A DNA stretch of 61,544 bases from Candidatus Omnitrophota bacterium (GCA_003142795.1 PLNN01000028.1:1-61544), one strand, 5' to 3'. Shown: positions 19,051 through 37,753, counted from the first letter of the stretch. Notes: generated by a model from the letters alone, not told the origin. Translations and numbers: made by a program.

Positions 19051-19071
19051 TACATTATTCCTAAAAACACG

Positions 19072-19857
19072 TTAGGCCCTGAGCATGGATCGAAGAGATG
19101 CCGGCAATATCTTTAAAAAAGGATGCTTCGCTCCATAAACAAACATTTTTTCAGATTTATAAAAGTCCAGCATCTCATGCTTTCTTTCATTAAAGTGAAC
19201 GACGCTGCTGCCATAGAAATCTATAAAACTGATCTTGTCTGTTTTGCTTCTGGCGATAGAATAGATTACAGCATCTTCGGGACAGCCAGGGACCGACCTG
19301 TTTTTAGCTTTCATTGTTTCGTTATTTACCTTATCAAATACCTCCGCAAAGATATCTTTATTGAAATCGCTTAGTTGCGGAATGAAAGAGCTTTTTAAAA
19401 AATAACAGCCGCCCTGTGTAAAGAAAAAAGGGGCGCACCAGGTCTCCTTGTGGCCCAGCAAATTATCCCCGGACTTTAAAACACTCGCAAATACATCATC
19501 GGAAATGAATAAGACGTCCGAATCTACTTTTGCCACATAGTGTTCGGGATCGATCTCTTCGCTGATATCTTTAAATACCTGCAATTCTACACGGACAGTC
19601 TGTTCGCCGGCCCAGCTAAATTTCTCGCGCTTTCTCACAATCAAATCAGATCTCAGTTTTTTTAAGGACCGCATCTGCATTTCGGTTAAAAAATCTTCCT
19701 TATCAATGTATAGATACACATTCCCTAGGGATGCCGAGCGCAGAGCGGCCAGGCTTTTCAAAGAAAGAAATAAATAATCGAAATGTTTGCGGCATGAAAA
19801 ATAGACAACATGCATCTTATCGCTACCCGATACTTTATTTGAGAATAATCGTTTCAT
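19072..19857 (-). CDS. Hypothetical protein, possibly a GT-A-like transferase
   Basis: The ORF is in an operonic position. VAKVDSDVLF (DxD-like) is the only cue. Confidence 0.35.
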   Translation of the reverse strand: MKRLFSNKVSGSDKMHVVYFSCRKHFDYLFLSLKSLAALRSASLGNVYLYIDKEDFLTEMQMRSLKKLRSDLIVRKREKFSWAGEQTVRVELQVFKDISEEIDPEHYVAKVDSDVLFISDDVFASVLKSGDNLLGHKETWCAPFFFTQGGCYFLKSSFIPQLSDFNKDIFAEVFDKVNNETMKAKNRSVPGCPEDAVIYSIARSKTDKISFIDFYGSSVVHFNERKHEMLDFYKSEKMFVYGAKHPFLKILPASLRSMLRA

Positions 19858-20744
19858 ATTCTATTTGCCCATAACGACGACATGCGATCGTATGATAGCG
19901 CGGCCATGTCCTTCAAACCGTATCTATAGCCTATCTTTTCCAGCAGGATCCGGCGCGCTTCATCGCGAAGGTCCCGTTTTAAAGGGTGGTACATTATATT
20001 CAGATCGCGATCCGCAGCATACGCCACCTCTTCTTTGCCAATGTAAGGACGCCATCTCATGCGCCAGGAAGATTGCGGCGCTCCTTCATGCAAATAGGTC
20101 AGGCGGGGTGCAAATCCCGCATCTTTTAGCAGGTTTGGCACGATCAATTCGTCGAGACACAGGCCTTTTTGCTTCATTGTCAGGTAACCCGGATTATTTT
20201 CGATTATGTTTATGCGGTCTGCGATGAAATTAACCGCTTCTTTGGAATGAACCTGAAACGCACCCAGACATCCCGAGATCCTCGCATCCTTCCTCGAGAG
20301 CCCCAGATCGGATAAGATCCGATGGTAAGACCCTATGTTTTCCGAGAATTTTTTTGCCCACAGCCAATTACATTTGCCGTCATTTTCGTCGACGGAATCC
20401 AAAAAATCGAATTTTCCTGCAAAGATCCCGTCTATGCCGGAATTCGCAAATAGACAATCCGAATCCAGCTTTATAAAATAGTCAAAATTCAAGTTACGTA
20501 TCTCTTCAAGGGCATCGAAAATAAAATTTTGCAACTGATGATATTTGTATTCTCTTTTATTTTTTATTTTTCTTAACCGGTCATAAGAATGGCCTATATC
20601 CTTATCACTTGAGAACAGGACTAACGGGTCGTGGCAAAATTTTTTGATGCTGTAATATAACTGCTTAGTGTAGATGAACTGCTCAGCTACAGGCAATCCA
20701 AATATCAATTTAAGGCTCATATGATCCCAACGCTCCTTAAACAT
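19854..20744 (-). CDS. Hypothetical protein, possibly a GT-A-like transferase
   Basis: The ORF overlaps its neighbour by 4 nt. FIKLDSDCLF (DxD-like) is the only cue. Confidence 0.3.
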   Translation of the reverse strand: MFKERWDHMSLKLIFGLPVAEQFIYTKQLYYSIKKFCHDPLVLFSSDKDIGHSYDRLRKIKNKREYKYHQLQNFIFDALEEIRNLNFDYFIKLDSDCLFANSGIDGIFAGKFDFLDSVDENDGKCNWLWAKKFSENIGSYHRILSDLGLSRKDARISGCLGAFQVHSKEAVNFIADRINIIENNPGYLTMKQKGLCLDELIVPNLLKDAGFAPRLTYLHEGAPQSSWRMRWRPYIGKEEVAYAADRDLNIMYHPLKRDLRDEARRILLEKIGYRYGLKDMAALSYDRMSSLWANRI

Positions 20745-20751
20745 TGTCGTA

Positions 20752-22083
20752 TCAGAAAGGACATTTCATCAGGTCCGTGCTAAAAAAGGTAAAAAGCGAG
20801 CTTAATTTTAATGCCCAGAGCCCCGTTAAAATTATTAGTACTGAAGAAACAAAATAGCCCGATAAAAATAATTTCTCATTCAGCGCCCTTTCCAGCTTTA
20901 CCAGCGCCAGGCCGGAAAGAATGGCTATAGCAGGATATGCAAGAAGCATATACCTGTCCTCTTTGCACCATAAAAAGAGAGATAAAAACAGAAAGATCGC
21001 CGCGAACCAGGATATCAGAAAAAATTTCGCATCCCTGTCCCTCTTCTTAATGAAAAAAGTGAATATCGATACGCAGCCGAGTAAATATAGCGGGAACTGG
21101 AATAGCATGTTCACCAGATATACATACCGCGGCCTCTGACCGATCGATACCAGCCAGGGCGTGATGGTTACCGGTATTTTAGGCGCGCTGAGGACATAAG
21201 TTTTACGAAATGACAACAGCCAGGGGCAACTGATCATGGCCGCCGCAAAAACAATGATGACTACTTTTGGGTCGAAAAGGATACCGAAAAACCGGCTGAT
21301 CTTTTTCAGGCCGGAGCGGTTTATCCAGAGATGATGCAGGATTATCGCCAATATGATAAATCCTCCGGTAAATTTAGTTAAAAAGGCTATCCCGGCGCAG
21401 ATGCCAGATAATAACGCGAACATAATGTTATTACGCCTGACGGATAAAAAATAAAATACGGCTGTCATGACGGTGAAAAAGGTAAGCGTCGTATCCGCCC
21501 ATATCTTACTGGTAACGACCAATTCCACCGGCGTCAAAGAGAGCATCAGCGCCGCATATAAGCCTATCCGCTCGCTGAACAGCATTTTCCCCAAGGTGTA
21601 AGTGAAAAATATCGACAAAATACTAAAGAGAAAAGGCACCAGTGCCGCATAGAATTGTAAATGCCAGTAAGGATTGCCGCTGAAGCTGGACATGAAATAC
21701 TGCCCATTGGAGGAAAAAATCCTGTGAGAAAGCATTAGAAGAAAACTGAAGGCCGGCGGGCGATGCGTGGGTATCCCGTTTTCGTAATTTACACCGGACA
21801 TCGCCAACAAATTCCCGACACTTTTATTACCTATTACTGGGACATTGAAATATCCATTGGAATAAATATCTACAAAATGAAGATTGAAATTTTTAGCGAA
21901 ATCCTTAAAACCGTAACTATCCAGTTTCATGGCCAGGCTTGTATAAGCGGTCTCGTCAAAATTGGTGTGCGTGAGATAGAATATAGGTAGCCTTAAAAAA
22001 GCTGCAAATATCAAAACGAAAAATATCGGTAGAAAGCTGAATTTCAGGTCTTTGCCCTTAAGCATATTATTGGATTTTATCAC
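20752..22083 (-). CDS. GT-C fold membrane glycosyltransferase (ArnT / PMT_2, family 39/83-like)
   Basis: About 11 predicted TM helices. The first periplasmic loop has an acidic FDE motif (THTNFDETAYTSLA) and a basic RRN follows the 'TK' loop, typical of ArnT/PMT-like enzymes. The track uses a GTG start at 22083, and ATG at 22065 is an alternative. Confidence 0.6.
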   Translation of the reverse strand: MIKSNNMLKGKDLKFSFLPIFFVLIFAAFLRLPIFYLTHTNFDETAYTSLAMKLDSYGFKDFAKNFNLHFVDIYSNGYFNVPVIGNKSVGNLLAMSGVNYENGIPTHRPPAFSFLLMLSHRIFSSNGQYFMSSFSGNPYWHLQFYAALVPFLFSILSIFFTYTLGKMLFSERIGLYAALMLSLTPVELVVTSKIWADTTLTFFTVMTAVFYFLSVRRNNIMFALLSGICAGIAFLTKFTGGFIILAIILHHLWINRSGLKKISRFFGILFDPKVVIIVFAAAMISCPWLLSFRKTYVLSAPKIPVTITPWLVSIGQRPRYVYLVNMLFQFPLYLLGCVSIFTFFIKKRDRDAKFFLISWFAAIFLFLSLFLWCKEDRYMLLAYPAIAILSGLALVKLERALNEKLFLSGYFVSSVLIILTGLWALKLSSLFTFFSTDLMKCPF

Positions 22084-22102
22084 GTTTTAAGGGCGGGGTC
22101 AA
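22063..22102 (-). promoter_or_regulatory. Candidate internal promoter TTGACC-N17-TAAAAT for the glycan cluster. It would give a near-leaderless mRNA starting at ATG 22065.
   Basis: The minus strand reads TTGACC at 22102-22097 and TAAAAT at 22079-22074, with ATG 8 nt downstream of the -10 box. No SD precedes either candidate start. Confidence 0.25.
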
Positions 22103-22121
22103 AGGGAAAACTTGACCGTTA

Positions 22122-22158
22122 TAAAAAAAGGCGTTCCTACGTTGATGTAAGAACGCCT
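22122..22158 (-). terminator. Rho-independent terminator of the giant gene
   Basis: The minus-strand RNA forms AGGCGUUC/GAACGCCU (8 bp), one mismatch, then a further 3 bp (UAC/GUA) and a 6-nt loop. UUUUUUUAU follows immediately. The hairpin ends about 30 nt after the stop at 22188. Confidence 0.65.
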
Positions 22159-22187
22159 AATGTAACTATTGTAGTATAATTATATGC

Positions 22188-25100
22188 TTATGCCGACATC
22201 ATCGTTAGAGCAACCTGATGATAATCCGGCGTTCTCCATCTTTCCGTAGGCATGTAAGAAAGATTATGATTAATAAGGAATGCAGCGGCTTCACGCGTCC
22301 TATCTAAGGCATCTTCCAAAGCAGAGGGACTTAGCTTGCCGGCTTCTGCAATATCTATGGCTACTATAGAATTCATATATTGCGTTATGAATGCATCGCT
22401 TACGTCGTTCGAATGCGTCTTCAGAAAGAACTCCAGCACCATATATAGGCTATTACGCTTCTCTATATCCTCTTTGGTGATACGTCTGACGAGCAGCATC
22501 TGAGTATATAGATCGAACCTGCAAAGCTGCCTCTCATTATCATTTAAGTTGGCATCGCTGTTAAAACCTGTGGTATCGACATGCACAAACTTTATGCCGG
22601 GAGCTCCCTTCATAAGATTCCGGATATTTTCTTCTTTCCAGGGTCCTGACAACTGGACAACTACCCGCTTCGGATCAAGGCCATCTACGTTTATATGGCC
22701 CAGGATATTATCAACGCTGGATGTGTTGACCCTCAGGACATCGAATCTATCGGCAAACCCGGCAATCTTTTCTCCTTCAGGCGTTATTCCATTCCTGTCA
22801 TTCTTGAGATCGCCGTCCTTATATAAATTTGCGTTCACTAAAAGTGTGTATCGTGTATTCTCAGGCGTCGGGATCTCCATCCCAGCATTCGTTGCATGAT
22901 TCTGGGCGATCTCGTTTATTTCAGCAAGCGCTTCATTATAATTACTATGAATATCGATCGATGAAATATTTCCTGCAGCCTGGATCGCTGTTTCCGCCGG
23001 ATGAGTCAATTCTCCCACTCTCGTAGATGCCGTTGATTCAAACCCCTCGCCAATTAGTGTCGGTCCCTTCCACTCGCTTCCGCTAAAAATATCATCCGAG
23101 TGTCTTGGTAATTCCGGAGCCGCATACCGATCAGCCCAGAATCTGAACTCTCTTGAGCCTTTACCCGGAGTAAGCGCATATCTTCGTTGGCCGCCCTGCG
23201 AGGACGCATCCAGATATCCGCTTTTTATTAATCCATATAGTTCTTGCCGCGCACTTTCGGCATTTTTAGCAATGCCTCTTGCCGCATAAAGCGCAATATA
23301 ATCGGTTATGGTAATGCTGGCTGCGTCATTACCTTTAAATAATTCAACAACGGCTTCCCATGTCGCGGTTTGTGGATCTTCAAATCTGTGATTTGAGATC
23401 GAAGTATCGGCTACCGAACTGTCGCGACGGTCGGGCTGGGCGGATTTTCCATTGCCAGCCGCACCCCAGTTTGCAGGATACCGGTCTTCGGGATGCACAA
23501 AGCCTCCGACATTACTGCCACCTTCATTAATATTAGATATAGGATTATTCGGCACCGGCGGTACCTTACCTATCGCGCCGAAAGGCTGTTCCGTGACACG
23601 TTTACGATTCCTATCAGGATGTATCTTCGAACTACTGCGAGCCGATCCACCCTGGGCATCGGATTTTTTCGTTACCGCAGGTGCCTGCAATTTCTGATTA
23701 AGGACCGGGCTTGTCTGGCTCCATGACTTATTAACCAGCTCGTCCAGCGCTGCCTTGAGATCGGCTTCCAGCTTCTGTTGGGTGCCCTCCGGCCAGGTAA
23801 CGGTAAAATTATCATAGCCGGTAATTTTAAACTCCTGTTTAGCCTTCTTTTCGATTCTAAGATCGACTGAACCTATCTGACCCGCTCTAAACAAAAGCCG
23901 GCAAGACATTATATCGGCCTTAAGCTTATCCGCATATAACACCACGTCCCTTTGAGTAGAGTCTCCGATAGAGTTGCCGCGCAGAACCAAAGATTGTATC
24001 GGCATCTCTGCCGAATAAGGATCCAGCCTGCCTACGCCCACAACTGTCATCCCTGCTTCTTGCATTAAAGAAGGACTCATAACATCTGCCACAGGAGATT
24101 CAATGCCCTCGGGTCTCTTTTTTGCATTCTTATCTGCGAACCAATCCTGCGGTTTATTGCCATCATTGCTACGTACCGCTAGAGGTTGCGGACCGAATGT
24201 AGGCATGCCAGACCGTTCAGTATTTGCTAAAGCGGTAACTGCCGCTGCCATCTGTTCCCCAGCAGCGACGGCTGGCCTTTCGCCCGTCAGCGGTATTCCG
24301 CTTTGCACGGGTTGCGTCATTGGTTGCGGCGTTTCGGATGCTTGGCTCGCCTCAAGATTACTCAAAACAAGGTCCGGACCATTCTCGTCTTGTTTAATGA
24401 CTATTGAAAAGAATTTCTCGCGCAGCTCTTTTGATTTCACCTGTATATACAAACTATCTGAAGGCAAACTGTTTTTATCCCTTGCTGATCCTACGGGCCT
24501 AATATCCAGCGCGTTAAGCCTGCCGTTTAAAGAATTCACAAAACCCTGATTTTTTTCCGCGACTTGCCACGCCTTGTCGAAAAGCTCTGTTTCTCTTCTC
24601 CCGGCATCATTAGGGGTAATCCGATAAAAGTTGTCGACTTTATGCATCAACTGTCTGGAAGATAAAAACCATAATAATATGTTTACATTTGTATAGAAAT
24701 TTCGTCTATATGGCTCAAGCACCTGCCATGTAATTGTTCCTAACGTATCCTCATGAGCTCTCATAACTAATTGCGAAAGCGCTTCGAACATTCCTTTGCC
24801 TGTCAGCACGTAATATCCGCGCCTGGTCCTATTAATATATCCTTGTTTTATCAACTCTCTTCTGCTGTATATAAGTGCCGTACGGCTTATTTGGCCCATC
24901 TCGGCAACATATTTCTCATGATCGTTAGTCGCGAACCCATTAGGGTTGAAAAATACCTCCGAATGGCGCGCGAATATGTATAACGCGTCATCATCGCTGC
25001 TGCCCGGCTTACGGTCAAATTGTCCGCTCTTCACGTCATGCCGCTGTGATCCCGCGTTTTCATTTTTAATGCTAGGGCTCAATTCAGACGCCCTTAAGTC

Positions 25101-28100
25101 GATCGCCTTATTGATATTTCTAAGTTCGGCTTGAAATTCCAAATCGTTTGATCTGATCCGTTCTTTAAGACCTTCCATTCCGCCGAATCGGTCCAACATA
25201 AAAGCCGCGAATTGTTTCGCCGACTCCTCCCCTTCCGGCGTAAGCTTATACACACCCCGGCTCACGTCTTCCAGATATTTTGCCGCTCTCAGGGGAGTCC
25301 TATCTGCGCGTAACGTCCCTTCTGCTATTTCTTTGCTGTAAATGTCCGCTGCTATGGAAAAATGATCTCTTACCTTAAAACTTTTTCCCTGACAGAATTC
25401 ATCGGGGTATAGACCGAACAGTAACAACGCTCCCGCCGGGCTGCCAAGACCTTTAAGTTGCCCGCCGGGCTGCCTGGAATTTCCTGTCTCTGCGGCCTGC
25501 GGCACTGACTTCTTCTCTTCGGTTCCCTGTTTTGAATAGGTAACTTGACCACCAAGTTGTATCGCTTTTATCTTTGCCTCAAAGGCCTTCAGAGATGCCA
25601 GGTAAGCAGCTTCAAATTGATCGCCGCCTCTCCACGTAAGGAGCTTGGCCAGTTTTTCGAGGTCCATTCTGAAACGGCCATGTATGGGCATCGATTCCTG
25701 TCCGCATATGGGCGAACTTAAATCTCCTGCTTCATTAAGCCCTTGCAATCTTTGGTTATACGCAAGGATCTCTTCTCTTATATTGACACCTGTCTTATCT
25801 TTGGAAGGATGGGTTCCCTGGATATCCAGGATAGCATTTGTATATCTATCGAACAGATCATTGGCGTATCTGATGATACGCTCCGGTGTTAAGCCCTCCG
25901 CATACTCGGTCTTCCTGCCCAGAGGGTCATATTTTGTTATTATACGGTTATCGTCTATGGCATGATCGAGCTGCCTTATGGCACTTTCCTTCTGCTTGTC
26001 TGTAAGGCCTTCAAATCTTTCCTCTATCGCTTTTCTGAGCCCGTCAGGCATGGTATTGACGGTATCCGGCCCGATCAGATTGACAAAATAGAGAAGCGGG
26101 TCTACGTGGCGATCTATATCCGCCTGTTTTACCTGTGTGGACGCCCACAGCGGGATCCTCGATCTTATATTTATATTCGGGATCTGTTTTTTTAAATTTT
26201 CGAATCTTTTTCTTAACATATCCAGCTGCGGAGGTCTGGGCGTTCCGTATGGGAGGCCCTTGCCGAAATAGACGTAATTATTCCACCTGCCCACTATCTT
26301 CGCCTGTGCTACAGCTACCTTGTCCTTTATCTGTTCGAACTTTTTCTTGTCCCCCGCACCCAGCATTCCATTTTCAATAAGCTTTCCGAATATCGTATTT
26401 ACCAATATATCGGTCCTGGAGAGGAAGAAGGAATCGACGCCGAAATAATCATCTATCGGCTTATTATGCCTGACCCTTTGTTCAAGCTTTTCTATCTGTG
26501 CAAACTGGCTTTCCAGCCACTGGTCGAATCCGAACATAAGCGTCATGTTATCCCTTACGACATTTTCAGCCAGGGCATTCTGCCTGACGGCCTCGAAGTT
26601 GGCAGCAGTGGAAGGCGACTTGACCATGACCGCCTTCGGATTTAAAGATGTTATCAGGTTCTGATATGATACGGTATCCTTGACATTATGAATGAGATGA
26701 GGCGGCACTTCATAGCTTGCCGTTCCGAGAGCATGGCCGCCAATGGTAGTCATCGCGCCGATAAGATTAAGATATTCCGTGAACGCGCCCATCGTAACGT
26801 CATCGTATACCTTAGCCGGGTCTGTTATGCCTTGCGAAACCAACTCCTCGATAGCCTGGTCAAATAGACCGCTTTCAGCGCTGGTCTGGAAGATACTCAA
26901 ATTTGTGGTGAGGCCCATCATGCGGCTTGTGGCCCATGCCATAGAGATCTGACGTCGATCCCGCGGATAATTGTCGCGGTAAAAATGCTGCCCCGTAAGA
27001 CTGCTTGGGTCTACCAGATAATAAAGCGGGCTTTTGTAGTTTATATTAACCGTATCGCCTGCTTTAAGCGTGTCATCAACAGGCTCGCCGCCGTTTACAA
27101 GAACGGGTGATTGCCCCTCTACCTTAGCCAATACGGCATCCTGATTCAAGGCAAGGCTAGCCAATGTTTTTCTCAAAGAGGAGTCTACGACCGGCGCTTG
27201 CACCTGCTGGCCATCGGCAACAAAAATAGCTTTCCCTGCCTCTGCGGCCGGCTTTAACTGCGCTGGCTGCTGTTGACCTCTCCTGGCCTTTATCCTGGCT
27301 GCCCATATACGCTCCTCACCGGGCACGACCGATTCGCATTTTGGCTCCGTTTTAGGATTGAACGCCCCGATCGGGCCCGATAGAAGCTGGAAACTTGCGA
27401 TCTTATCGGTGATCCATAGCTTGCCGTCCGGCCAATCGTCAGTGCGAAATTCTGTTGTCAAGCTTCTTCCATCCGGCGCTGTAATGGTAAAAGACGCCCA
27501 GCCTTTTTCGTCCGTTTTGAATCCTGTAAATACCTGTTCGACCGGTGTCTCTATTACCTTTGGTTCTGTGAAATTATATTGTGCCGGGACATCCTCTATT
27601 CTTATCGGGAAATGTTTTGTGTCGTCGTTTATATAGATCTTTGTAGGAGTGCCGCTGCATGTAACGGCCGCGCCGCCTTTTAGGGACCAGGGATGTATAG
27701 AGGCGTGATACGGAAGATCTACCTCACCGTCATTTTTAACACTATGCATCATGGTAAGGTCATCCCCTATCAATACGTAGGTGGTACCTATTTTCGCGGA
27801 AGCTTTTTTCGTGGGTTCGGCGGCACCCTCTTCCCGCTCTTCGTAAATATCCTTGAAAATATTATCCTGTCCCGCGTCAGTAGTAAGTGTAACAAACGCG
27901 CCGCGTTCAAAAGTATAAGGATCTTTGACCAGGCCGTATGAGCTCTCACGATAACGCATTTGGATCCCCTGCAGTGCATTGCCGCCTTCCTTCTGATCAA
28001 ATCTTATGCGATCTCCGCGATATTTATTGAGATCTCTGACCTTGCCATTCACCATGGCCATACCGCCCCTAACCCTGCCGCTGAAAGGACCTATGACCGA

Positions 28101-31100
28101 TGGTATGCCGCCTGTCGGCGTATATACATCATCGGGATACCACAGGATCTCACCATCAGCATCCCACGACCTTACCGTTGCGGATTCCGTTATAACTTCT
28201 ATAGCTTTGCCTGCCTCAAAGTTCCCGAGTTTAAATATCGAATGCACCCCTTCCAATAAACATTCTTCATATGACTCCGGGTCGATAGGCGCTGATTGCG
28301 GCCCGTTAAGTAATTCGCGCAATTTAGGGTCTACGGGAAGCTTGTTTTTTTCCGCAAAGCCCATGTCGGCAAAAATGTTCAATCCGAAAGAATTTCTTCT
28401 TGACACGGCCTCTCTTAAAATTTCTATGCCTCCTATTGCACTTATATCGGGGCAGTCTTCTAAATTGCCTTCTCCGTGCAGGAAAAAGACCGCTCCCATA
28501 TCTTTAAGAAGGGCGTGTAATTGTAATACAAGTTCTGCATATGTAACATAAAGCGTATGTTCTTTGCTTGCAGGATCGTGCTTTGCGCGAATTTGGGTGA
28601 ACGTTTCGGGATGTTGATATATATCGCATAGATATTCTAACTCTTGTATCGTAAAGCGGAGCGCGAGCTGTTTGATTATCGCATGTTCCTTATCAGAAAA
28701 TACCTTTTTCACCTCTACTCCGTGAGTGGGACGCGAATTATCCGGTTGGCCGGCACCGCCATAATTGAATTCATCCAAATCTTTATCTGGATAGTTGAAA
28801 ACCCTAACGTGAGGGCCGGGTTGCGCAGTACGTAATTGCTTTCTAGCAGCATCGGGAAATAGAGCGGGTAATCTTAACTGGGCATCCTGCGTAATAAGCT
28901 CGGGGCGCGCTTCGTATATTCCCACCAACCTATCCAGAGCAACATTCCTTACCCGCTGGCGTGCATTTTTACTGGAAGCCATATTGACCAATTCGGCTAC
29001 AGCAAGTTCAGCGGCAGCCTTGGTAGAACTATGATTCAGGGCTATAGAAGCCAGTTCTCCGACCCTTTCCATGGCAATTTCGAAAGCAGAAACTTGCTTT
29101 ATGCCCATAACCGGACTGACATCAAACCGCACCCGAGTCCCATCATGTTTTCTTACAATGATCGTTTCTTTGTATGTTCCGTTTGTGATCGTGAAACTCT
29201 TATCAAAATTGCATATGCCCTCGAAACCGCCGTTAATTCTTTTAAAATGGCCACCTTCAACCTTAACATTATCCGGCGCCTTGATCGACATGCGGACCAT
29301 GTTTTTAGATTTGTTTATCTCAATTATACCTATTTCAATGCTGTGATTAAGAATGACGCTAGCGCCTTCTTTATATGTATGCGCAAAACCATTGCTGGAA
29401 TTTTGCGATAATGGTTCAGACAATATTTCCGTCGCGGTTTGCGAGCCAGGGCTGCTTCTGAAATCTGCCCCATCGCCAAACTGGTCCGTGTATTTGCGCA
29501 CTCCCTTAAAGCCTTTTATTTCGGTCGAGCCCGGCCGCTGGGCAGCGGCGTCTATGCGCTTAGCCGACTTCTGCGCAGGCGAGGGTTGAGAAGTTATCGT
29601 GATTTCTACGGATTCGCGTATGGTATCGATATTGCCTATTTCCAACGTATGCTTGGTGCGGTTTCTGTTAAATTTTATATTATCACCTTTTTTGGCCGAA
29701 CCCGGCTCGACTATAAAATATGACGCTCCGCTAACCATCGCCTTAATGGCAAGTCCTTCGATGTGAGAGGCGTCCCTGATCTTGCCTACTGTAATATACA
29801 AACCGGTATCTTTATATTCTACCAAACCGTCAACGAGGTAATAGGTAAAGAAGTTTTTGTTTGCCGCTGGTTTTGAAGCAGGCGGCATGCCGTCAACAGG
29901 TGACTTTTTTAACGCTTCGTTGATTTCTCTTTCAAAGGTCTTCCACTCTTCAAAAAGGTCGTTATATATCCCTATACTATCAGTACCTTGATAACAGGCG
30001 ATGGTAAAAAGCGATCCTTGGCACAAGTCGAACACCAGGCCATAACTGCCGAGCGCCTCATTCAATTTTTTTATTTTTTCACTAGCGGGGTCCGAACGCA
30101 ATATTACGAGCTCCTTGCTATTCGGCAATGTAATATAGAGCGCAGGAGAGCCTCTTCTGGTCCCGATCGTGATCTTTGGAGGAATTGAATTTTTCGTAAT
30201 TGCGGCGGGTAGCGGGTTGGACAAGATAGACCCCATGGCACGGTCACGCGTGAGCGTTTCATCCAGACGCTCTACGACTTTCAGCTTTGCAATCTTTGCT
30301 CGGGTAGTAATGTCTGATGCTATACCATGTTCATAGCTATTATTCGCAATGGTCATAATATTGTTCAAAGAACCACTTCTATCAACTTTGCCGAGTAGAC
30401 CGAAGTGGACGGTCGTCTCATAGAAATATTTGGAGTCGAATGATCTTGCATTAGTCTTTAACGCTATTATGGAAGGTTCATTTGCAGCAGGCTCCCCGGC
30501 ATATGCGAAATCATTCGCTTCCGCTATAATATATACCGCATTATCGCTTGAGTGCGCGTATTCGTCGATAGGTATCAGCATGCCCTCTTCATTCGGCATC
30601 AGCCCTACCGGATAATCTTCATTTTTATTTTTAAGGACAATTACTAAAGGTTTTTTCCTTAAATCTCCACTCAGTTTATTGAGTTCGTCAGAATTTATAC
30701 CAAGTTCCATTAAACGAAATATTACCCGCTCACAGACTTTTGTTATATCGCCATTATTTGAATATACATACTTTGCTTTACCATATTTTCTAAAAGCAGT
30801 CGGAGGGACGCCTTTTCCTTTAAAATGACTCGGATGGAATTGTTCATTAACGGCTATTTCCCCCGCATCCGCCTTCTTCGCCAGATATTCATCCATCGAA
30901 AGCCTGCCCTTGACAGGTGATATTTCATGGCTGACGTGCATCGCGGCAGCATACTGATGTTCCTGGCTTCTCTTGGGAAGATTACGAAGCGTGTCATATT
31001 TTACAAATCTGTCGTATTCATTTTCTTTATAAACATATATGGGAAAACCGCCGTCCGCATCCCTTTTTGAAGCGATCACGGCATAATATGTCCATGGCTC

Positions 31101-31520
31101 TTTTCTTGGATTTTTTGGATCGGTAACGCGGCACATTATCCTGAAGTGCCCGTCCGGCAATGCCTTCATTTCATTGGGAAAGATCTGCACGCCTATCTCT
31201 GGGAAAAATTGTAGATCGGGGGCGGAAGATATCGTATCTTTATGTTTAGTAGCCATCTCTGCCAGTTTAGGGAGAAGATTAAGATCCACGGTCTTGGCTT
31301 GTCCGGCCATCTTAAGCAGCGAGGATAACAACGCAACCCTTATCCTGAACTCATGATTTATTTCAGGCCCGTTCAGGTCGTCGCAACGCAATGCCGCAGC
31401 AAGCCTGTCGGTGTTGGAAACGTAATTTAACTGCTGGGCAAACGCAAAATCAGATAATGCAGTATTGAATATGAAACATATCAAAATTATTGCCGAGATG
31501 ATCTTTTTTGTTCTTTTCAT
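22188..31520 (-). CDS. Giant secreted/surface multidomain protein (3110 aa)
   Basis: One uninterrupted ORF with GGAGGA 12 nt upstream of the ATG. The N-terminus MKRTKKIISAIILICFIFNTALSDFAFA/QQ is a classic Sec signal (basic n-region, h-region, AxA). Recognisable internal modules are listed as separate features. Confidence 0.85.
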   Translation of the reverse strand: MKRTKKIISAIILICFIFNTALSDFAFAQQLNYVSNTDRLAAALRCDDLNGPEINHEFRIRVALLSSLLKMAGQAKTVDLNLLPKLAEMATKHKDTISSAPDLQFFPEIGVQIFPNEMKALPDGHFRIMCRVTDPKNPRKEPWTYYAVIASKRDADGGFPIYVYKENEYDRFVKYDTLRNLPKRSQEHQYAAAMHVSHEISPVKGRLSMDEYLAKKADAGEIAVNEQFHPSHFKGKGVPPTAFRKYGKAKYVYSNNGDITKVCERVIFRLMELGINSDELNKLSGDLRKKPLVIVLKNKNEDYPVGLMPNEEGMLIPIDEYAHSSDNAVYIIAEANDFAYAGEPAANEPSIIALKTNARSFDSKYFYETTVHFGLLGKVDRSGSLNNIMTIANNSYEHGIASDITTRAKIAKLKVVERLDETLTRDRAMGSILSNPLPAAITKNSIPPKITIGTRRGSPALYITLPNSKELVILRSDPASEKIKKLNEALGSYGLVFDLCQGSLFTIACYQGTDSIGIYNDLFEEWKTFEREINEALKKSPVDGMPPASKPAANKNFFTYYLVDGLVEYKDTGLYITVGKIRDASHIEGLAIKAMVSGASYFIVEPGSAKKGDNIKFNRNRTKHTLEIGNIDTIRESVEITITSQPSPAQKSAKRIDAAAQRPGSTEIKGFKGVRKYTDQFGDGADFRSSPGSQTATEILSEPLSQNSSNGFAHTYKEGASVILNHSIEIGIIEINKSKNMVRMSIKAPDNVKVEGGHFKRINGGFEGICNFDKSFTITNGTYKETIIVRKHDGTRVRFDVSPVMGIKQVSAFEIAMERVGELASIALNHSSTKAAAELAVAELVNMASSKNARQRVRNVALDRLVGIYEARPELITQDAQLRLPALFPDAARKQLRTAQPGPHVRVFNYPDKDLDEFNYGGAGQPDNSRPTHGVEVKKVFSDKEHAIIKQLALRFTIQELEYLCDIYQHPETFTQIRAKHDPASKEHTLYVTYAELVLQLHALLKDMGAVFFLHGEGNLEDCPDISAIGGIEILREAVSRRNSFGLNIFADMGFAEKNKLPVDPKLRELLNGPQSAPIDPESYEECLLEGVHSIFKLGNFEAGKAIEVITESATVRSWDADGEILWYPDDVYTPTGGIPSVIGPFSGRVRGGMAMVNGKVRDLNKYRGDRIRFDQKEGGNALQGIQMRYRESSYGLVKDPYTFERGAFVTLTTDAGQDNIFKDIYEEREEGAAEPTKKASAKIGTTYVLIGDDLTMMHSVKNDGEVDLPYHASIHPWSLKGGAAVTCSGTPTKIYINDDTKHFPIRIEDVPAQYNFTEPKVIETPVEQVFTGFKTDEKGWASFTITAPDGRSLTTEFRTDDWPDGKLWITDKIASFQLLSGPIGAFNPKTEPKCESVVPGEERIWAARIKARRGQQQPAQLKPAAEAGKAIFVADGQQVQAPVVDSSLRKTLASLALNQDAVLAKVEGQSPVLVNGGEPVDDTLKAGDTVNINYKSPLYYLVDPSSLTGQHFYRDNYPRDRRQISMAWATSRMMGLTTNLSIFQTSAESGLFDQAIEELVSQGITDPAKVYDDVTMGAFTEYLNLIGAMTTIGGHALGTASYEVPPHLIHNVKDTVSYQNLITSLNPKAVMVKSPSTAANFEAVRQNALAENVVRDNMTLMFGFDQWLESQFAQIEKLEQRVRHNKPIDDYFGVDSFFLSRTDILVNTIFGKLIENGMLGAGDKKKFEQIKDKVAVAQAKIVGRWNNYVYFGKGLPYGTPRPPQLDMLRKRFENLKKQIPNINIRSRIPLWASTQVKQADIDRHVDPLLYFVNLIGPDTVNTMPDGLRKAIEERFEGLTDKQKESAIRQLDHAIDDNRIITKYDPLGRKTEYAEGLTPERIIRYANDLFDRYTNAILDIQGTHPSKDKTGVNIREEILAYNQRLQGLNEAGDLSSPICGQESMPIHGRFRMDLEKLAKLLTWRGGDQFEAAYLASLKAFEAKIKAIQLGGQVTYSKQGTEEKKSVPQAAETGNSRQPGGQLKGLGSPAGALLLFGLYPDEFCQGKSFKVRDHFSIAADIYSKEIAEGTLRADRTPLRAAKYLEDVSRGVYKLTPEGEESAKQFAAFMLDRFGGMEGLKERIRSNDLEFQAELRNINKAIDLRASELSPSIKNENAGSQRHDVKSGQFDRKPGSSDDDALYIFARHSEVFFNPNGFATNDHEKYVAEMGQISRTALIYSRRELIKQGYINRTRRGYYVLTGKGMFEALSQLVMRAHEDTLGTITWQVLEPYRRNFYTNVNILLWFLSSRQLMHKVDNFYRITPNDAGRRETELFDKAWQVAEKNQGFVNSLNGRLNALDIRPVGSARDKNSLPSDSLYIQVKSKELREKFFSIVIKQDENGPDLVLSNLEASQASETPQPMTQPVQSGIPLTGERPAVAAGEQMAAAVTALANTERSGMPTFGPQPLAVRSNDGNKPQDWFADKNAKKRPEGIESPVADVMSPSLMQEAGMTVVGVGRLDPYSAEMPIQSLVLRGNSIGDSTQRDVVLYADKLKADIMSCRLLFRAGQIGSVDLRIEKKAKQEFKITGYDNFTVTWPEGTQQKLEADLKAALDELVNKSWSQTSPVLNQKLQAPAVTKKSDAQGGSARSSSKIHPDRNRKRVTEQPFGAIGKVPPVPNNPISNINEGGSNVGGFVHPEDRYPANWGAAGNGKSAQPDRRDSSVADTSISNHRFEDPQTATWEAVVELFKGNDAASITITDYIALYAARGIAKNAESARQELYGLIKSGYLDASSQGGQRRYALTPGKGSREFRFWADRYAAPELPRHSDDIFSGSEWKGPTLIGEGFESTASTRVGELTHPAETAIQAAGNISSIDIHSNYNEALAEINEIAQNHATNAGMEIPTPENTRYTLLVNANLYKDGDLKNDRNGITPEGEKIAGFADRFDVLRVNTSSVDNILGHINVDGLDPKRVVVQLSGPWKEENIRNLMKGAPGIKFVHVDTTGFNSDANLNDNERQLCRFDLYTQMLLVRRITKEDIEKRNSLYMVLEFFLKTHSNDVSDAFITQYMNSIVAIDIAEAGKLSPSALEDALDRTREAAAFLINHNLSYMPTERWRTPDYHQVALTMMSA
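23150..25260 (-). other. Three winged-helix-like modules in the C-terminal third of the giant protein
   Basis: The modules are RAAKYLEDVSRGVYKLTPEGEE (about 25225-25256), ISRTALIYSRRELIKQGYINRTRRGYYVLTGKG (about 24792-24900) and ARQELYGLIKSGYLDASSQGGQRRYALTPGKG (about 23158-23260). Each shows the helix - L(I/E)x.G(Y)(I/L) - wing - Y.LT.(K/E)G pattern of MarR/PadR-type wHTH domains. Confidence 0.4.
25990..27040 (-). other. Transaldolase-fold (class I aldolase TIM barrel) domain within the giant protein (about aa 1490-1845)
   Basis: The ordered blocks are GLTTNLSIFQ (26895-26909 for TTNLS), VMVKSPST (Lys1634 at 26619-26621), NMTLMFGF, VDSFFLSRTD, PLWASTQVK and LIGPDTVNTMP. They match the transaldolase family blocks in the correct order and with roughly the right spacing. 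Confidence 0.65.
27350..28180 (-). other. Aldose-1-epimerase (mutarotase)-like beta-sandwich domain within the giant protein (about aa 1110-1390)
   Basis: GGIPSVIGPFSGRVRGG...NGK...L (compare GIP.L.PW.NRI..G.f..dG..y.L). GGNALQG stands where the family has N.lHG, with Gln1184 at 27969-27971. YHASIHPWSL matches HPYFNL, with His1276 at 27693-27695. Confidence 0.5.
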
Positions 31521-31653
31521 TTTGCTTGGTCTTCCTCCGTTATAATTATTATTCTTTACTTACTAAATTATTTTATTTATAAAACAAAAATGCCTGACAT
31601 TGCTGCCAAGCATTTTATTTGCTTCGTGTATGAAAAATTTTAAACTTGGTGTT

Positions 31654-31681
31654 AGTTTATCATAAAAGGAAAAGATGTCAA
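31654..31681 (-). promoter_or_regulatory. Candidate sigma70-type promoter of the giant gene (TTGACA-N16-TAAACT)
   Basis: The minus strand reads TTGACA at 31681-31676 and TAAACT at 31659-31654. This implies a 5' leader of about 130 nt. The site lies in the 220-bp AT-rich spacer after metG. Confidence 0.35.
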
Positions 31682-31740
31682 TGCGTTAAATCTATCTTTT
31701 TTAAACCTTAACAATTTTATAAATCGGAATAGAAAAAAAA

Positions 31741-33243
31741 TTATTTGGTTTCGATGCGGGGAAATAATGGGCCGGATGATCTTACTTTTCCCGATCCATC
31801 TTTCATGCCGAGCTGGTTTTTCATCTTTTCACTCGTTTCGGGCATGAAAGGATATATCGATATCGCGATCGTCTTCAGGGCGTCGATAAGCCCTGACATC
31901 AGCGACGCAAGGTCATCCGTTTTTTTCTCTTTGGCGAGGTTCCATGGCTTCGAATCTTCGATCAATTTATTCGCTATGTCTATCACTTCCCATATCTTCG
32001 TCAGCGCTGTCACAAAATCGAAATTCGGGATAGATCTTTCAAGTTCAGCGGACAAATTTAACGCCTTATTTTTCAAGTTATCGTAACCCGTGACCCGTGA
32101 CCCGTGACCCGTAATTTCCGGAACTTTTCCCTCAAAATACTTATCCACCATCGAAAGCGTCCGGCTCAACAGGTTTCCCAGGTCATTGGCAAGATCGCTA
32201 TTGTAACGCGTGATAAGCGCCTCTTCGCTGAAAGTGCCGTCCAAACCGAAATTTACTTCTCGTAACAGGAAATACCTGTAGGGATCGACGCCATATTTCG
32301 TTACAAGTTCAATGGGATCGACGACGTTACCTTTCGACTTCGACATCTTCTCGCCCTTTATCACCCACCAGCCATGCGCAAAAATAGACTTCGGCGGTTC
32401 GATGCCTGCAGCATGAAGTATTATGGGCCAATAAACCGCGTGATGGCGGAGTATATCCTTGCCTATGACATGAAAATCGGCAGGCCATAAATTCCCGAAG
32501 CGTTCCATATCGTGCGGGTAGCCTGCCCCGGAAATATAATTAACAAGGGCATCGAACCATACATATGTCACGTAATCTTTATCGAACGGGATCTCTATGC
32601 CCCAGCTCATCCTGCTCTTCGGGCGCGAAATGCAAAGGTCCAAAAGCTCTTCTTTCAAAAAACCGAGCACTTCGTTCTTGCGAAAATCCGGCCGTATGAA
32701 ACCTGGATTCTTATCTATATATTCTATGAGCCATTTCTGGTACTCGGAAGTCTTAAAAAAATAATTTGTTTCGTCGAGCCGCTCTATTGGCCTTTTGCAA
32801 TCGGGGCAAATCCCGCCAGGCGCCTGGTTTTCCGACCAGAAGGTCTCGCATGGCGTGCAGAACCACCCTTTATATACCTTCTTATAAATTTTGCCGTCTT
32901 TATACAATTTCTGCAGGATCGCCTGGACGGCCTTTATGTGATAGTCGTCCGTCGTCCTTATAAAGTAATCGTATTTGATGCCGAGTTTTGCCCACAGGTC
33001 TTTAAAGACCGGGACGATCTCGTCGACAAACCGCTTCTCTTCGCCCTTCTTGTAGCCGCGCTCGAGCGTCGTCTTTTCTATCTTCTCGCCGTGTTCGTCC
33101 GAACCGGTCATGAAGAAGACCTCATGCCCGAGCTGCCTCATGAAACGCGCTACGGTATCGCAGGCAACCTGCGTGTAGGAATGGCCTATGTGCGGTTTCG
33201 AATTAACGTAATAAACAGGCGTTGTGATATAGAATTTTTTCAT
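31741..33243 (-). CDS. metG: Methionyl-tRNA synthetase (short form, lacking the C-terminal tRNA-binding appendix)
   Basis: HIGH block (PHIGHSYT), KMSKS block (KMSKSKGN), and zinc knuckle CTPCE...CPDC. Confidence 0.95.
   Translation of the reverse strand: MKKFYITTPVYYVNSKPHIGHSYTQVACDTVARFMRQLGHEVFFMTGSDEHGEKIEKTTLERGYKKGEEKRFVDEIVPVFKDLWAKLGIKYDYFIRTTDDYHIKAVQAILQKLYKDGKIYKKVYKGWFCTPCETFWSENQAPGGICPDCKRPIERLDETNYFFKTSEYQKWLIEYIDKNPGFIRPDFRKNEVLGFLKEELLDLCISRPKSRMSWGIEIPFDKDYVTYVWFDALVNYISGAGYPHDMERFGNLWPADFHVIGKDILRHHAVYWPIILHAAGIEPPKSIFAHGWWVIKGEKMSKSKGNVVDPIELVTKYGVDPYRYFLLREVNFGLDGTFSEEALITRYNSDLANDLGNLLSRTLSMVDKYFEGKVPEITGHGSRVTGYDNLKNKALNLSAELERSIPNFDFVTALTKIWEVIDIANKLIEDSKPWNLAKEKKTDDLASLMSGLIDALKTIAISIYPFMPETSEKMKNQLGMKDGSGKVRSSGPLFPRIETK
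32084..32111 (-). repeat. In-frame heptanucleotide tandem repeat (TAACCCG + 3x TGACCCG on the plus strand) inside metG
   Basis: Read directly from the sequence. It encodes ...EITGHGSRVTGYD... between the catalytic core and the anticodon-binding region. Confidence 0.9.
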
Positions 33244-33244
33244 A

Positions 33245-34027
33245 TTATTTATACGGCACCTCTATTATGGTGCCGTCCTCAAGCTCAGCCGTTACAGAAC
33301 GTTTGATAGCATTTATGCTTATGATCTTGCCGTTACCCTTCTCCGTCTTTATGATCTCGCCTTCATGCGGCATGCCTTTCATCAATTCCTTATATGTCTT
33401 ATACTCGTATCCAAGGCAGCACATGAGGCGGCCGCACAGGCCCGATATCTTCGTAGGATTGAGAGGCAGGTTCTGTTCTTTGGCCATCTTTATCGTAACG
33501 GGCTCGAAATCTTTCAGATACGTCGCGCAACATAATGCCCTGCCGCACGGGCCAAGGCCGCCGAGGATCTTGGCCTCGTCGCGCACGCCTATCTGCTTTA
33601 ATTCTATGCGTGTCTTGAATACGTTGGCCAAGTCCTTGACCAGGTCCCTGAAGTCTACTCTTCCCTCGGCCGTAAAATAGAAGACTATCTTCGAGCGGTC
33701 GAACGAGAACTCTGCATCTATCAGTTTCATCGGGAGCTTTCGCTCCTGTATTTTTTTGGAACAGGTATCCATTACTTCTTTTATCTTCTTCTTATTCTTA
33801 TCGACCTGGTGCATGTCCCACGGATTCGTTTTACGTATCACTTTCTTCAGAGGCTCTTCCAGGTCCGAATCCAGTATCGCTTCCCTGTCTGATAGAACCT
33901 GGCCGTAGTCGAGCCCTCTGTCGGCTTCGACTATCACGTGATCGCCGATCTTGAATTTCATTCCGCCGGGCGAGAAATAAGTTATCTTGCCGGCTTCCCT
34001 CAATCTTACCTGGATCACTTCATACAT
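33245..34027 (-). CDS. ricT: PSP1-domain protein (YaaT/RicT-like)
   Basis: PSP1-type Cys-rich blocks GPCGRALCC and LCGRLMCCL. It sits next to holB, as in Bacillus. Confidence 0.75.
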   Translation of the reverse strand: MYEVIQVRLREAGKITYFSPGGMKFKIGDHVIVEADRGLDYGQVLSDREAILDSDLEEPLKKVIRKTNPWDMHQVDKNKKKIKEVMDTCSKKIQERKLPMKLIDAEFSFDRSKIVFYFTAEGRVDFRDLVKDLANVFKTRIELKQIGVRDEAKILGGLGPCGRALCCATYLKDFEPVTIKMAKEQNLPLNPTKISGLCGRLMCCLGYEYKTYKELMKGMPHEGEIIKTEKGNGKIISINAIKRSVTAELEDGTIIEVPYK

Positions 34028-34030
34028 TTA

Positions 34031-35008
34031 TTACCTCGCATTCTCTAACGCGGCCAATCCAAGGACGGCGATCGTCAGTTTCGGATTCGCGTTTGAGTCT
34101 AAAAACGACCCTGTTAATATTATCTGTTTTATGATCTCTTCGATACGCGAAAATTTAAGGCGCTTGGCTTCTTTTATTATCGCGTCTGACTTATCTATAT
34201 TGACCAGCCCAAATACGGCATCCGCGCCGGAGGCCTTAGTGATCAGGATATCCCTGTACCATGTAAGCGCGATATCAAGATACGCTTTAAGTTCCGGCTT
34301 CGAAACGGCGTCGAAATCCGAATCAAAGAATTCGTTCCTTGCAAGGCTGTCGACTATCCTGTTCCTCTTCTTCAGAAAATCGCCTTCTTTGTATTTTAAC
34401 GCCACTCCCATCCTGCCACTCGAAAGATGCGCGAGCGCTTTAGCCTGAGGCTCGTCGATCTTATGCTCTTTAACCAAGATCCTCGCCGTCTCATTAACGC
34501 CGAGCGCGTAGAATTTCACGGCCTGGCTGCGCGACACTATGGTCGGCAGTAGATCCCTCAATTCGGGCGCTATCAGGATAAGGAGCGCATCCGTTGGGGG
34601 TTCTTCAAGCGTCTTTAAGAAGGCGTTCGCGGCTTCGCGCGTCAGGGCCTGGGCATTATCTACTATATAGATCTTCTTTTTCGCTTCATACGGCTTTAGC
34701 CCTATATCCTTGATCAGGGCGCGTATCTTTTCTATGCCGACCGACGATCCCTCTTTATCGGGTGAGAATAAAAATACGTCGGGATGGTTAAATGAATTTA
34801 TCTTTTTGCATGAAGCGCATTCTTCGCATGGCTCTTCGTCGCGGGCGTCCTGGCAATTCAGCATCTTTGCGAAATTAAGCGCAGTCATCTTCTTACCTAC
34901 GCCTTCAGGACCCCAAAATATATAGGCGTGCGAAAGCCTGTCTTGCCTTGCGGCATTCTTCAGTATCGCTATTGCCCTATCCTGCCCTCTTATATCTTTG
35001 AATGACAC
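34031..35008 (-). CDS. holB: DNA polymerase III subunit delta prime
   Basis: HAY.F.GP.GVGK, a Cys-rich zinc module (C.EC.SC), and the LKTLEEPP block. Confidence 0.85.
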   Translation of the reverse strand: MSFKDIRGQDRAIAILKNAARQDRLSHAYIFWGPEGVGKKMTALNFAKMLNCQDARDEEPCEECASCKKINSFNHPDVFLFSPDKEGSSVGIEKIRALIKDIGLKPYEAKKKIYIVDNAQALTREAANAFLKTLEEPPTDALLILIAPELRDLLPTIVSRSQAVKFYALGVNETARILVKEHKIDEPQAKALAHLSSGRMGVALKYKEGDFLKKRNRIVDSLARNEFFDSDFDAVSKPELKAYLDIALTWYRDILITKASGADAVFGLVNIDKSDAIIKEAKRLKFSRIEEIIKQIILTGSFLDSNANPKLTIAVLGLAALENAR

Positions 35009-37737: not shown

Positions 37738-37753
37738 ATTTAAAAGACAATTA

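Follow-up and report, generated by a model that had tools for sequence, protein, structure and literature searches.

What is a protein assembled from folds of the cytoplasmic type doing behind a secretion signal? The question is raised by a protein of 3110 amino acids (aa), hereafter the giant, encoded on a 61,544-nucleotide stretch of DNA from Candidatus Omnitrophota bacterium (GCA_003142795.1 PLNN01000028.1:1-61544), the whole of which we call the window. Omnitrophota have been proposed to be predators or parasites and encode giant open reading frames (ORFs) that are poorly understood (PMC10066038). The initial annotation of the window described the giant as a lone assembly of unrelated parts. 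We found instead that it is a member of an unnamed, probably exported family, which includes members labelled Candidatus Omnitrophota, has conserved N- and C-terminal domains, and is represented by positional orthologs in other genomes. Most complete members share one frame: a 28-aa signal peptide, an N-terminal domain (N-domain), a variable middle, and a C-terminal domain (C-domain). We tentatively favour the view that these proteins are carriers exported by the Sec pathway, whose end domains stay constant while a fast-changing payload serves interactions with hosts or prey.

The giant and the constant frame of its family

To identify relatives, 1.84 billion representatives were searched exhaustively with HMMER, using residues 29-1100 of the giant as the query. 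This gave 47 proteins of 205-5827 aa. A word-index search with the whole protein returned the query alone, and one with a profile of the C-domain gave only a 217-aa fragment from another metagenome, 84% identical to the C-domain of the giant. Since the word index misses the family, its negatives should not be read as evidence that the giant is an orphan. The N-domain and the C-domain occur together in about 30 complete proteins from independent assemblies. The former covers about 370-460 aa and ends with a motif of the RDYAAG type (RDRAMG at aa 425-430 of the giant, against a family consensus of RDYAAG); S325, G374, R425, and D426 are invariant. The C-termini are small and nonpolar (...[LIM][IVLM][SAFC]A, e.g., ...TLISA), and that of the giant reads ...TMMSA. 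There are variations of the frame. Two full copies of the N-domain, each ending in RDYAAG, are found in P0005, P0006, P0020, and P0032 (P and L numbers are our own handles), and a second, partial copy in P0014. In P0012 and P0013 the usual C-domain is replaced by a different one that these two proteins share (28% identity, E 1e-13).

The export signal is part of this frame. Once two starts proposed by the gene caller had been corrected (P0002, for example, truly begins MSRSNRIIS...), the same signal-peptide layout was found in all 48 N-termini of the family. Two to four Lys/Arg precede the hydrophobic core in every one of them. This core has 12 residues and starts at residue 7 in most members; it is followed by acidic and few basic residues, and in most of them residue 28 marks an A-x-[A/G]/Q-like site. 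According to the positive-inside rule, such a layout of charges puts the bulk of the protein outside. In the giant, the sole hydrophobic segment spans aa 4-29, and A28 is probably the last residue of the leader before cleavage. The layout thus agrees with the cleavable-looking Sec signal peptide, ending before QQ, of the initial annotation, and the orthologs keep it, which leaves that reading standing.

The end domains resemble nothing described that we could find. The first ~1100 and the last ~330 aa of the giant had been reported as unrecognisable, which is correct as far as public profiles are concerned, but these regions are not unique to this protein, because aa 29-432 and 2876-3110 are the two family domains. 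Pfam and NCBIfam gave no match in either end region at E<=0.1, and the Pfam tiles of both termini stayed empty at a nominal E<=5. Nothing useful came from PADLOC or PHROGs, profile searches of both end domains against PDB sequences were empty, and the last 300 aa had no NCBIfam or Pfam match to known C-terminal sorting signals (T9SS CTD, PEP-CTERM, LPXTG, etc.). AlphaFold2, given the family alignment, predicts a C-domain in which a four-strand alpha/beta subdomain precedes a helical bundle (predicted local distance difference test, pLDDT, 94.3; predicted template modelling score, pTM, 0.92) and a mixed alpha/beta N-domain (pLDDT 81, pTM 0.77). Fold searches with these models found nothing at E<=0.001 in the PDB for both end domains, nor in BFVD for the C-domain. 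VirB8/NTF2-like, receiver/KaiA/PorX-like, and Argonaute MID folds were considered and not used, as their best TM-scores were 0.1-0.3. We also dropped three C-termini considered as divergent C-domains: those of L001_1595 and L002_2235 (hhalign E 0.5 and 0.15, respectively) and that of a 3168-aa protein of L012, which is missed by the hidden Markov model (HMM) of the C-domain.

The giant is encoded by one uninterrupted ORF (22188..31520, minus strand), along which the base composition is even. The frame between stops runs only 13 codons further upstream of the ATG at 31520, and no start is available before that ATG. As described initially, this 9.3-kb ORF has its own Shine-Dalgarno-like site (GGAGGA) and its own terminator (a hairpin followed by T7). 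It is not built from long tandem repeats: self-BLASTP at the protein level and TRF at the DNA level revealed no internal repeats. Neither these analyses nor the Pfam and NCBIfam scans detected signatures of adhesins, RHS, RTX, Ig-like, or beta-helix proteins, in line with what had been noted before. This very 3110-aa protein has been recorded from 3 contigs, so that a chimera born of a single assembly is less likely; searching contigs for the giant by exact match returned nothing.

Cargo modules and their turnover at one locus

Between its end domains the giant is a mosaic of folds of the cytoplasmic type, as the module matches confirm. The transaldolase-like and mutarotase-like folds reported initially were both recovered, the first by a Pfam match above the cut-off and the second by a weak match to Aldose_epim and by its similarity to a module of P0009. 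The family TAL_FSA (PF00923) matches aa 1522-1856 (E 1.5e-20, 74.2 bits for a cut-off of 27), and the NCBIfam transaldolase models reach E 1e-34 while scoring under their curated cut-offs (117 vs 367 bits; 56 vs 234 bits). The transaldolases of known structure 3r5e and 3clm align across the core of the module. We aligned three of the four exported copies (those of the giant, L001, and P0050) with three ordinary transaldolases of ~375 aa. D1516, N1540, E1604, K1634, N1658, T1660, and S1697-R1702 are invariant in this alignment, as are the motifs LWAST..K and GP.TVNT.P. We take these residues to play the roles they have in TalB of Escherichia coli, i.e., the Schiff-base lysine with its catalytic partners, and the residues that bind phosphate. 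On this pattern the module is apparently competent for catalysis, with a sugar phosphate as its likely substrate. It belongs to the same fold family as canonical transaldolases (PF00923; 3r5e, 3clm) and has all of their catalytic and phosphate-binding residues, but is only about 27-30% identical to them over the core and differs from them by a 60-aa N-terminal extension, an internal insert, a C-terminal extension of ~150 aa, and its setting in proteins with signal peptides.

The extended version of the module is found in three other proteins: one of L001, a metagenome-assembled genome (MAG) labelled uncultured Planctomycetia (58% identity), P0050, labelled [quoted passage not shown] (52%), and one of L002, a Candidatus Omnitrophota MAG (47%). 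All four carriers bear signal peptides, and the three others lack the N-domain of the family. Hence, the exported transaldolase module moves between different exported carriers. Ordinary transaldolases match its core alone, with ~27-32% identity. They include a 372-aa protein of Omnitrophota (P0150), separate from the exported module, which carries a signal peptide in each of its four carriers.

The mutarotase-like module has a different status. Its match to Aldose_epim (PF01263) covers aa 1107-1338 with 18-20.7 bits, for a cut-off of 27, and it is 33% identical to the module of P0009 (E 6e-31). H1276 is kept, whereas Q1184 stands in the place of the His of the NALHG motif and Q1378 in that of a Glu; both relatives in a three-way alignment have the His and the Glu. 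Since we take these two positions to be catalytic in GalM, the residues suggest that the module of the giant is probably inactive.

The other modules are smaller or less clear. Three winged-helix modules had been proposed, of which two are supported by our searches, while the third is faint. The second one has only weak matches, to HTH_45, AbiEi, and TubR. The CsrA-like match of the giant lies at aa 716-754. A HEAT-like stretch had been placed at aa 852-868, where we obtained no match to a HEAT-family Pfam profile at E<=5, a negative limited by the HMMER filters, which drop most matches above about 0.1. BLAST comparisons of the giant with its family delimit the shared segments as aa 1-453, 941-1042, 1103-1413, 1427-2005, 2007-2321, and 2736-3110, and gave no match for aa 454-940, 1043-1102, and 2322-2735. 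The exhaustive search returned nothing for aa 454-940 or 1043-1100, and PDB sequence searches of aa 454-1040 and 2001-2875 gave nothing significant.

The diversity of the cargo is much larger in the family as a whole, which has more than 20 enzyme Pfam families, for a single Pfam family above the cut-off in the giant. Pfam scans of 24 members identified AlaDH/PNT domains in seven of them (E about 1e-31 to 1e-34), transaldolase in four, and hexokinase, aldose epimerase (best E 4.7e-30), CsrA (down to E 3e-16), and GHMP kinase in two each. NAD epimerase, 2-hydroxyacid dehydrogenase, PFK, class II FBP aldolase, PfkB, cupin GPI, sigma-54 AAA, NagB-type isomerase, and ROK domains were found in one member each. 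P0002 additionally has a Glu/Leu/Phe/Val dehydrogenase and a domain of the inositol-phosphatase type. Several members have a HELGH metalloprotease-like module, or long coiled-coil or beta-propeller-like cargo with no enzymes.

This cargo is replaced at a conserved position. Members of the family lie directly 5' of the gene in which tatD is fused to a radical-SAM domain in four types of genomes: P0002 (L005), P0011 (L006-L008), P0014 (L009), and P0021 (L010-L011). The metG gene, 5' of the family member, was called or confirmed by BLAST in L005, L006-L008, L009, and L010. The order past tatD is Rce1-like, DUF362, IF-2B-like, AIRS, and TsaE, as far as the contigs reach, except that L009 lacks the Rce1-like gene and has DUF362 next to tatD/radical-SAM. 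In the window, the minus-strand order 5' of the giant is ispD, ispF, hexapeptide transferase, cysS, tmk, holB, PSP1, and metG. On its 3' side come an 11-kb glycan island, tatD/radical-SAM, Rce1-like, DUF362, IF-2B-like, AIRS, TsaE, TsaB, and alr. The closest syntenic relative is L005, and 15 flanking proteins are 58-94% identical between the two. In contrast, similarity between the giant (3110 aa) and P0002 (5875 aa) is confined to the N-domain (47%), the C-domain (44%), and a single winged-helix module (28-36%). With conserved flanks and a giant similar only at its ends and in one module, no gene of the block changes nearly as fast as the family member, and the change consists in the replacement of modules. 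The fused tatD protein has about 455-468 aa in all the relatives examined, and the Rce1-like (CPBP) gene comes next in L005, L006-L008, and L010. This Rce1-like protease might process the conserved C-terminus, an idea that we do not favour, since there is no CAAX-like Cys and, by Bacillus-type gene order, metG and tatD were presumably neighbours before the gene of the giant was inserted.

The glycan island had been described as a dedicated glycan/GT-C locus directly downstream of the giant. The cluster does lie there, but it is an 11-kb insertion specific to this genome. It encodes a GT-C/PMT_2 protein, two proteins without Pfam match, an ABC-2 permease and its ATPase, a FAD amine-oxidase-like protein, a GT2, two radical SAM proteins, one protein of unknown type, and another GT2. 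As it is absent from the four relatives, and a strong terminator separates it from the gene of the giant, it is not a dedicated partner of the latter. Neither the downstream GT-C/ABC cluster nor the domain order, whose conservation had been put forward as a check, is conserved: tatD follows directly and the middle is replaced. The G+C content is lower (0.41-0.45) across 12-16 and 18-22 kb, within the region of the island.

Copies of the family also occur at other loci, since P0019 and P0033 are in other genomic contexts. P0019 (MFA5143653.1), a paralogous member, is labelled "MAG: ROK family protein [Candidatus Omnitrophota bacterium]". In L012, an Omnitrophota MAG, it is flanked by the gene of a 3168-aa cupin-type GPI protein (1..1677 and 26307..29054 noted) and by GH94, glycoamylase-like, and sugar-binding-protein genes. 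Large enzyme-bearing proteins thus cluster there with a locus that resembles those for beta-glucan utilisation.

Possible functions and known systems

The initial annotation had suggested an uncharacterised exported protein, perhaps for contact with other cells or hosts. This general idea remains the best reading of the sequences, and we can give it a more precise form. ATP and NAD(P) are unavailable in the periplasm, and many of the cargo modules need them. Together with the phosphate site kept in the transaldolase module, this points to the cytoplasm of another cell as the working place. The predatory or parasitic lifestyle proposed for most Omnitrophota (PMC10066038) and the interaction-like turnover of the cargo make a payload directed at a host or prey the best reading, although we rate it slightly below even odds. 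The giant would be exported via Sec and its leader cleaved after A28. The two conserved end domains would provide a constant function, which may be retention in the envelope, onward export, or delivery. The variable middle would be a payload that acts outside the cytoplasm of the producer, most plausibly on or in a partner cell. Such a logic of constant handles and recombining cargo would be analogous to that of MARTX toxins and polymorphic effectors.

Several points weigh against this proposal. It is weakest in its mechanism, since we recognised no domain for translocation, pore formation, or autoprocessing. The role of the N- and C-domains in handling the payload is purely our inference, as neither structural nor sequence relatives of these domains were found. 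No conserved secretion genes were found next to the family, whose flanks are housekeeping genes. The two enzyme-like modules of the giant need no cofactors and could work in the envelope of the producer. Finally, P0019 and P0033 are encoded elsewhere, one of them in the cluster that resembles a beta-glucan utilisation locus.

A bolder form of the proposal is that the end domains make up a novel device, launched by Sec, which would deliver active enzymes and regulators that bind RNA or DNA into the cytoplasm of the host or prey and rewire its metabolism, with a payload re-dealt by recombination at a fixed locus. The delivered cargo would comprise transaldolase, hexokinase, PFK, and dehydrogenases, together with CsrA-like and winged-helix modules, and the producers would be host-dependent Omnitrophota. 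We regard this specific version, mechanism and cargo alike, as unlikely.

Among the alternatives, the one that survives best, though we also deem it unlikely, is a multi-enzyme scaffold that resides in the envelope and serves the extracytoplasmic sugar metabolism of the producer, the end domains acting only as anchors. Once exported to the periplasm or the cell surface, it would process sugars destined for uptake. The organism is diderm, since the window encodes Lol, Mla, TamB-like, and Omp85-type proteins; the transaldolase- and mutarotase-like folds of the giant are cofactor-free by established enzymology, and P0019 lies among GH94, glycoamylase-like, and sugar-binding-protein genes. However, the hexokinase, PFK, GHMP, PfkB, AlaDH, and Glu-DH modules of other members need ATP or NAD(P), the phosphate-binding residues of the transaldolase module imply sugar-phosphate substrates that are unexpected outside the cytoplasm, and a wholesale replacement of cargo among close relatives would be unusual for a metabolic function.

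We give somewhat less credit to a cytoplasmic metabolon or polyprotein tethered to the membrane, in which the N-terminal segment would be an uncleaved anchor or would not be used for export, and the chain might be proteolysed. All recognisable cargo is of the cytoplasmic type, including winged-helix and CsrA-like modules, which bind nucleic acids, and a sigma-54 AAA domain, and both the sequence and the length of the hydrophobic N-terminus are conserved to an unusual degree. Yet the Lys/Arg before the hydrophobic core and the acidic residues after it place the bulk of the protein outside by the positive-inside rule, the A-x-[A/G]/Q site is at a fixed position, no second transmembrane segment would bring the chain back, and Omnitrophota have a separate, ordinary transaldolase (P0150). 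A 2026 preprint on Omnitrophota giants (10.64898/2026.06.07.730766) first weighed such an intracellular metabolic cluster and found it contradicted by the predicted topology.

An adhesin or ligand-capture protein of the surface, made of dead enzyme folds that bind sugars or metabolites, appears improbable. It would account for the Gln at both the catalytic His and the Glu positions of the mutarotase-like module, and big exported proteins of Omnitrophota have often been proposed to be adhesins (PMC10066038). It is at odds with the Schiff-base Lys and the other catalytic residues kept in all four transaldolase carriers, with the AlaDH modules of the relatives, which score about E 1e-31 to 1e-34, and with the failure of the Pfam scans to find lectin, Ig, dockerin, or discoidin domains. 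An artefact, whether from chimeric assembly or from the decay of a fusion between unrelated genes, could explain the mosaic of unrelated folds and the about 900 aa without relatives, and can practically be set aside given the identical protein on 3 contigs, the association of N-domain and C-domain in about 30 independent assemblies, the intact 9.3-kb frame of even composition with its Shine-Dalgarno-like site and terminator, and the 84%-identical C-domain fragment of another metagenome.

The favoured exported carrier with swappable cargo can be compared with several known systems. MARTX toxins have conserved N- and C-terminal regions around a central array of effectors, whose repertoire differs among close strains by recombination. 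The resemblance, conserved ends that flank a variable array, is one of architecture and not of membership. Unlike MARTX, the giant lacks RTX/glycine-rich repeats, a CPD autoprotease, and a type I signal (Pfam and NCBIfam scans), has a Sec signal instead, and its end folds are unrelated. We also rejected two-partner secretion, in which the giant would be a TpsA: Pfam and NCBIfam found no TPS domain in aa 1-450, where the model is mixed alpha/beta, the ShlB/POTRA_2 gene of the window (49407..51134) is 18 kb away among Lol genes, and no TpsB gene was found beside the orthologs. Near the giant we saw no genes for type II secretion, pilins, or PilZ proteins.

The general phenomenon of multi-enzyme giants in Omnitrophota is already known from two preprints (10.64898/2026.06.07.730766; 10.1101/2023.11.21.568195). 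The first of them deals with proteins of 10,000 aa or more, called "multi-enzyme metabolic cluster" proteins, which carry sugar-metabolism and kinase Pfam families; 94% of these proteins have a signal peptide or transmembrane helices. As in our family, it reports enzyme Pfam families of the cytoplasmic type (sugar metabolism, hexokinase, ROK kinases) tiled in one chain with an export topology, very low sequence conservation between the proteins, and the same phylum, judging by our labelled relatives. Those proteins are defined by Pfam and by their length of at least 10,000 aa, whereas the giant has 3110 aa, a signal peptide only, and one or two enzyme modules. The archaeovorin and dockerin-type giants of Omnitrophota (West-Roberts et al., 10.1101/2023.11.21.568195) are also large, exported, proposed to act on other cells, and endowed with a domain-less N-terminal region by the signal peptide. 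They differ from the giant, in which Pfam finds no dockerin, TSP3, discoidin, C39/S8 peptidase, SecA-like, or cell-wall-degrading domains. We found no description of the family frame, of the metG-tatD locus with cargo replacement, or of the exported extended transaldolase in the accessible text of the 2026 preprint and of West-Roberts et al., nor in the profile libraries. A conceptual analogy is offered by microsporidia, which secrete hexokinases towards their host, with their localisation shown (PMC6460350, PMC6152459). They too put a signal peptide on an otherwise cytosolic sugar enzyme, but they are eukaryotic parasites and export single enzymes.

Omnitrophota giants have been widely noted without their function being understood, and the published work lists their domains and offers few experimental handles. 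The family provides several. Its two conserved end domains, of no recognised fold, can be folded confidently and used as markers or constructs. Its locus is defined, and there the housekeeping neighbours remain at about 75% identity although the cargo has been exchanged entirely, i.e., the signature expected of a diversification driven by interactions. Its proteins are small enough to be expressed (0.6-6 thousand aa), and the giant has a transaldolase-like module that, from its residues, is apparently active and could be assayed. If the proteins are delivered to other cells, a bacterial parasite would be manipulating its microbial host with exported proteins of glycolysis and regulation. If they are kept in the envelope, sugar-phosphate chemistry of the cytoplasmic type would be organised outside the cytoplasm in ultra-small cells.

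Coordinates and other genes of the window

The features of the giant and its surroundings are listed in Table 1. The candidate promoter reported initially is present, with TTGACA and TAAACT boxes, but a single sigma-70-like site was observed 5' of the giant for 2.2 expected in shuffled sequences, so it argues only weakly for a promoter. The hairpin next to it lies 125 nt past the stop of metG and could be the terminator of that gene, or a leader or attenuator element; it has no Rfam match. Rfam and tRNA scans of the window as a whole gave no match.

Table 1. Position of the features discussed in the text, numbered from the first nucleotide of the window
Feature	Residues (aa)	Coordinates	Strand	Remarks
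Left-edge protein		1..3638	minus	>1212 aa, runs off the edge; signal peptide ILVGAFLFNDIAYA/AD
tatD fused to radical-SAM domain		10046..11413	minus	conserved 3' neighbour in relatives
Glycan island		11407..22083	minus	absent here in all four syntenic genome types
Intrinsic-terminator-like hairpin		22129..22158	minus	12 bp, 6 GC pairs, then T7; directly past the stop of the giant
Family C-domain	2876-3110	22191..22895	minus	family HMM E 9.2e-65
Ser/Pro/Gly-rich region	2322-2775	23196..24557	minus	no significant relatives; possible third winged-helix module near aa 2736-2775, faint
Winged-helix module 2 and extension	2099-2321	24558..25226	minus	matches the same segment of P0002 and P0027 as module 1
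Winged-helix module 1 (Mrr_N-type)	2007-2097	25230..25502	minus	Mrr_N 31.2 bits on tile; matches P0002 and P0027
Extended transaldolase-like module	1427-2005	25506..27242	minus	Pfam, NCBIfam, and PDB alignments
Mutarotase-like module (aldose 1-epimerase fold)	1103-1413	27282..28214	minus	Q1184 and Q1378 for His and Glu
Module shared with P0012	941-1042	28395..28700	minus	37.5% identity, E 1.7e-15
CsrA-like beta modules	701-810	29091..29420	minus	weak, E 4e-4, under the Pfam cut-off
Region without detectable relatives	433-700	29421..30224	minus	partly low-complexity
Family N-domain	29-432	30225..31436	minus	family HMM E 4.5e-115, 47 relatives
Signal peptide	1-28	31437..31520	minus	MKRTKK n-region, 12-aa h-region, NTALSDFAFA, AFA/QQ site
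Shine-Dalgarno-like GGAGGA		31533..31538	minus	12 nt 5' of the ATG of the giant
Hairpin and T-rich tail		31587..31616	minus	between the sigma-70-like site and the Shine-Dalgarno-like site of the giant
Sigma-70-like promoter candidate		31654..31681	minus	TTGACA-16 nt-TAAACT with TG; consensus match only
metG (MetRS)		31741..33243	minus	conserved 5' neighbour of the family locus

The second large signal-peptide protein noted at the left edge of the window is indeed present, but it is not kin to the giant: BLASTP shows no similarity between the two, and we rejected it as a paralog. It has no match in Pfam, NCBIfam, PADLOC, or PHROGs. Its signal peptide and that of the giant share the "FLFN...A-x-A" style, and the left-edge protein contains an internal hydrophobic cluster and a segment of ~30 aa, SGRQNLPRPGDP.RMNTPP.SSLENPLDQA, which occurs twice. 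The syntenic position of L005, after alr, is occupied by an unrelated signal-peptide protein of 1048 aa. The left edge may thus be a second locus of variable exported proteins.

The gene order at 3753..47713 is mcsA, mcsB, clpC ... PIN-TRAM (yacL-like), ispD, ispF, hexapeptide transferase, cysS, tmk, holB, PSP1 (ricT-like), metG ... tatD. We take it to resemble the order of Bacillus subtilis, although the genome is that of a diderm. Judged by this Bacillus-type order, the adjacency of metG and tatD is presumably older than the insertion of the gene of the giant. The ShlB gene mentioned above encodes an Omp85 protein of the ShlB/FhaC type (POTRA_2 and ShlB) and adjoins LolC/E-like and LolD-like genes, with no TpsA-type gene adjacent. 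Further along, 54517..57576 encodes a 1019-aa signalling protein with two PAS domains, GAF, GGDEF, and an HD domain of the HD-GYP type, i.e., one for the turnover of cyclic di-GMP. Across the first 58 kb or so (1..58562) all sizeable genes are on the minus strand, and the GC skew is consistently negative until about 58 kb. It turns positive at two plus-strand ORFs (58639..59740).

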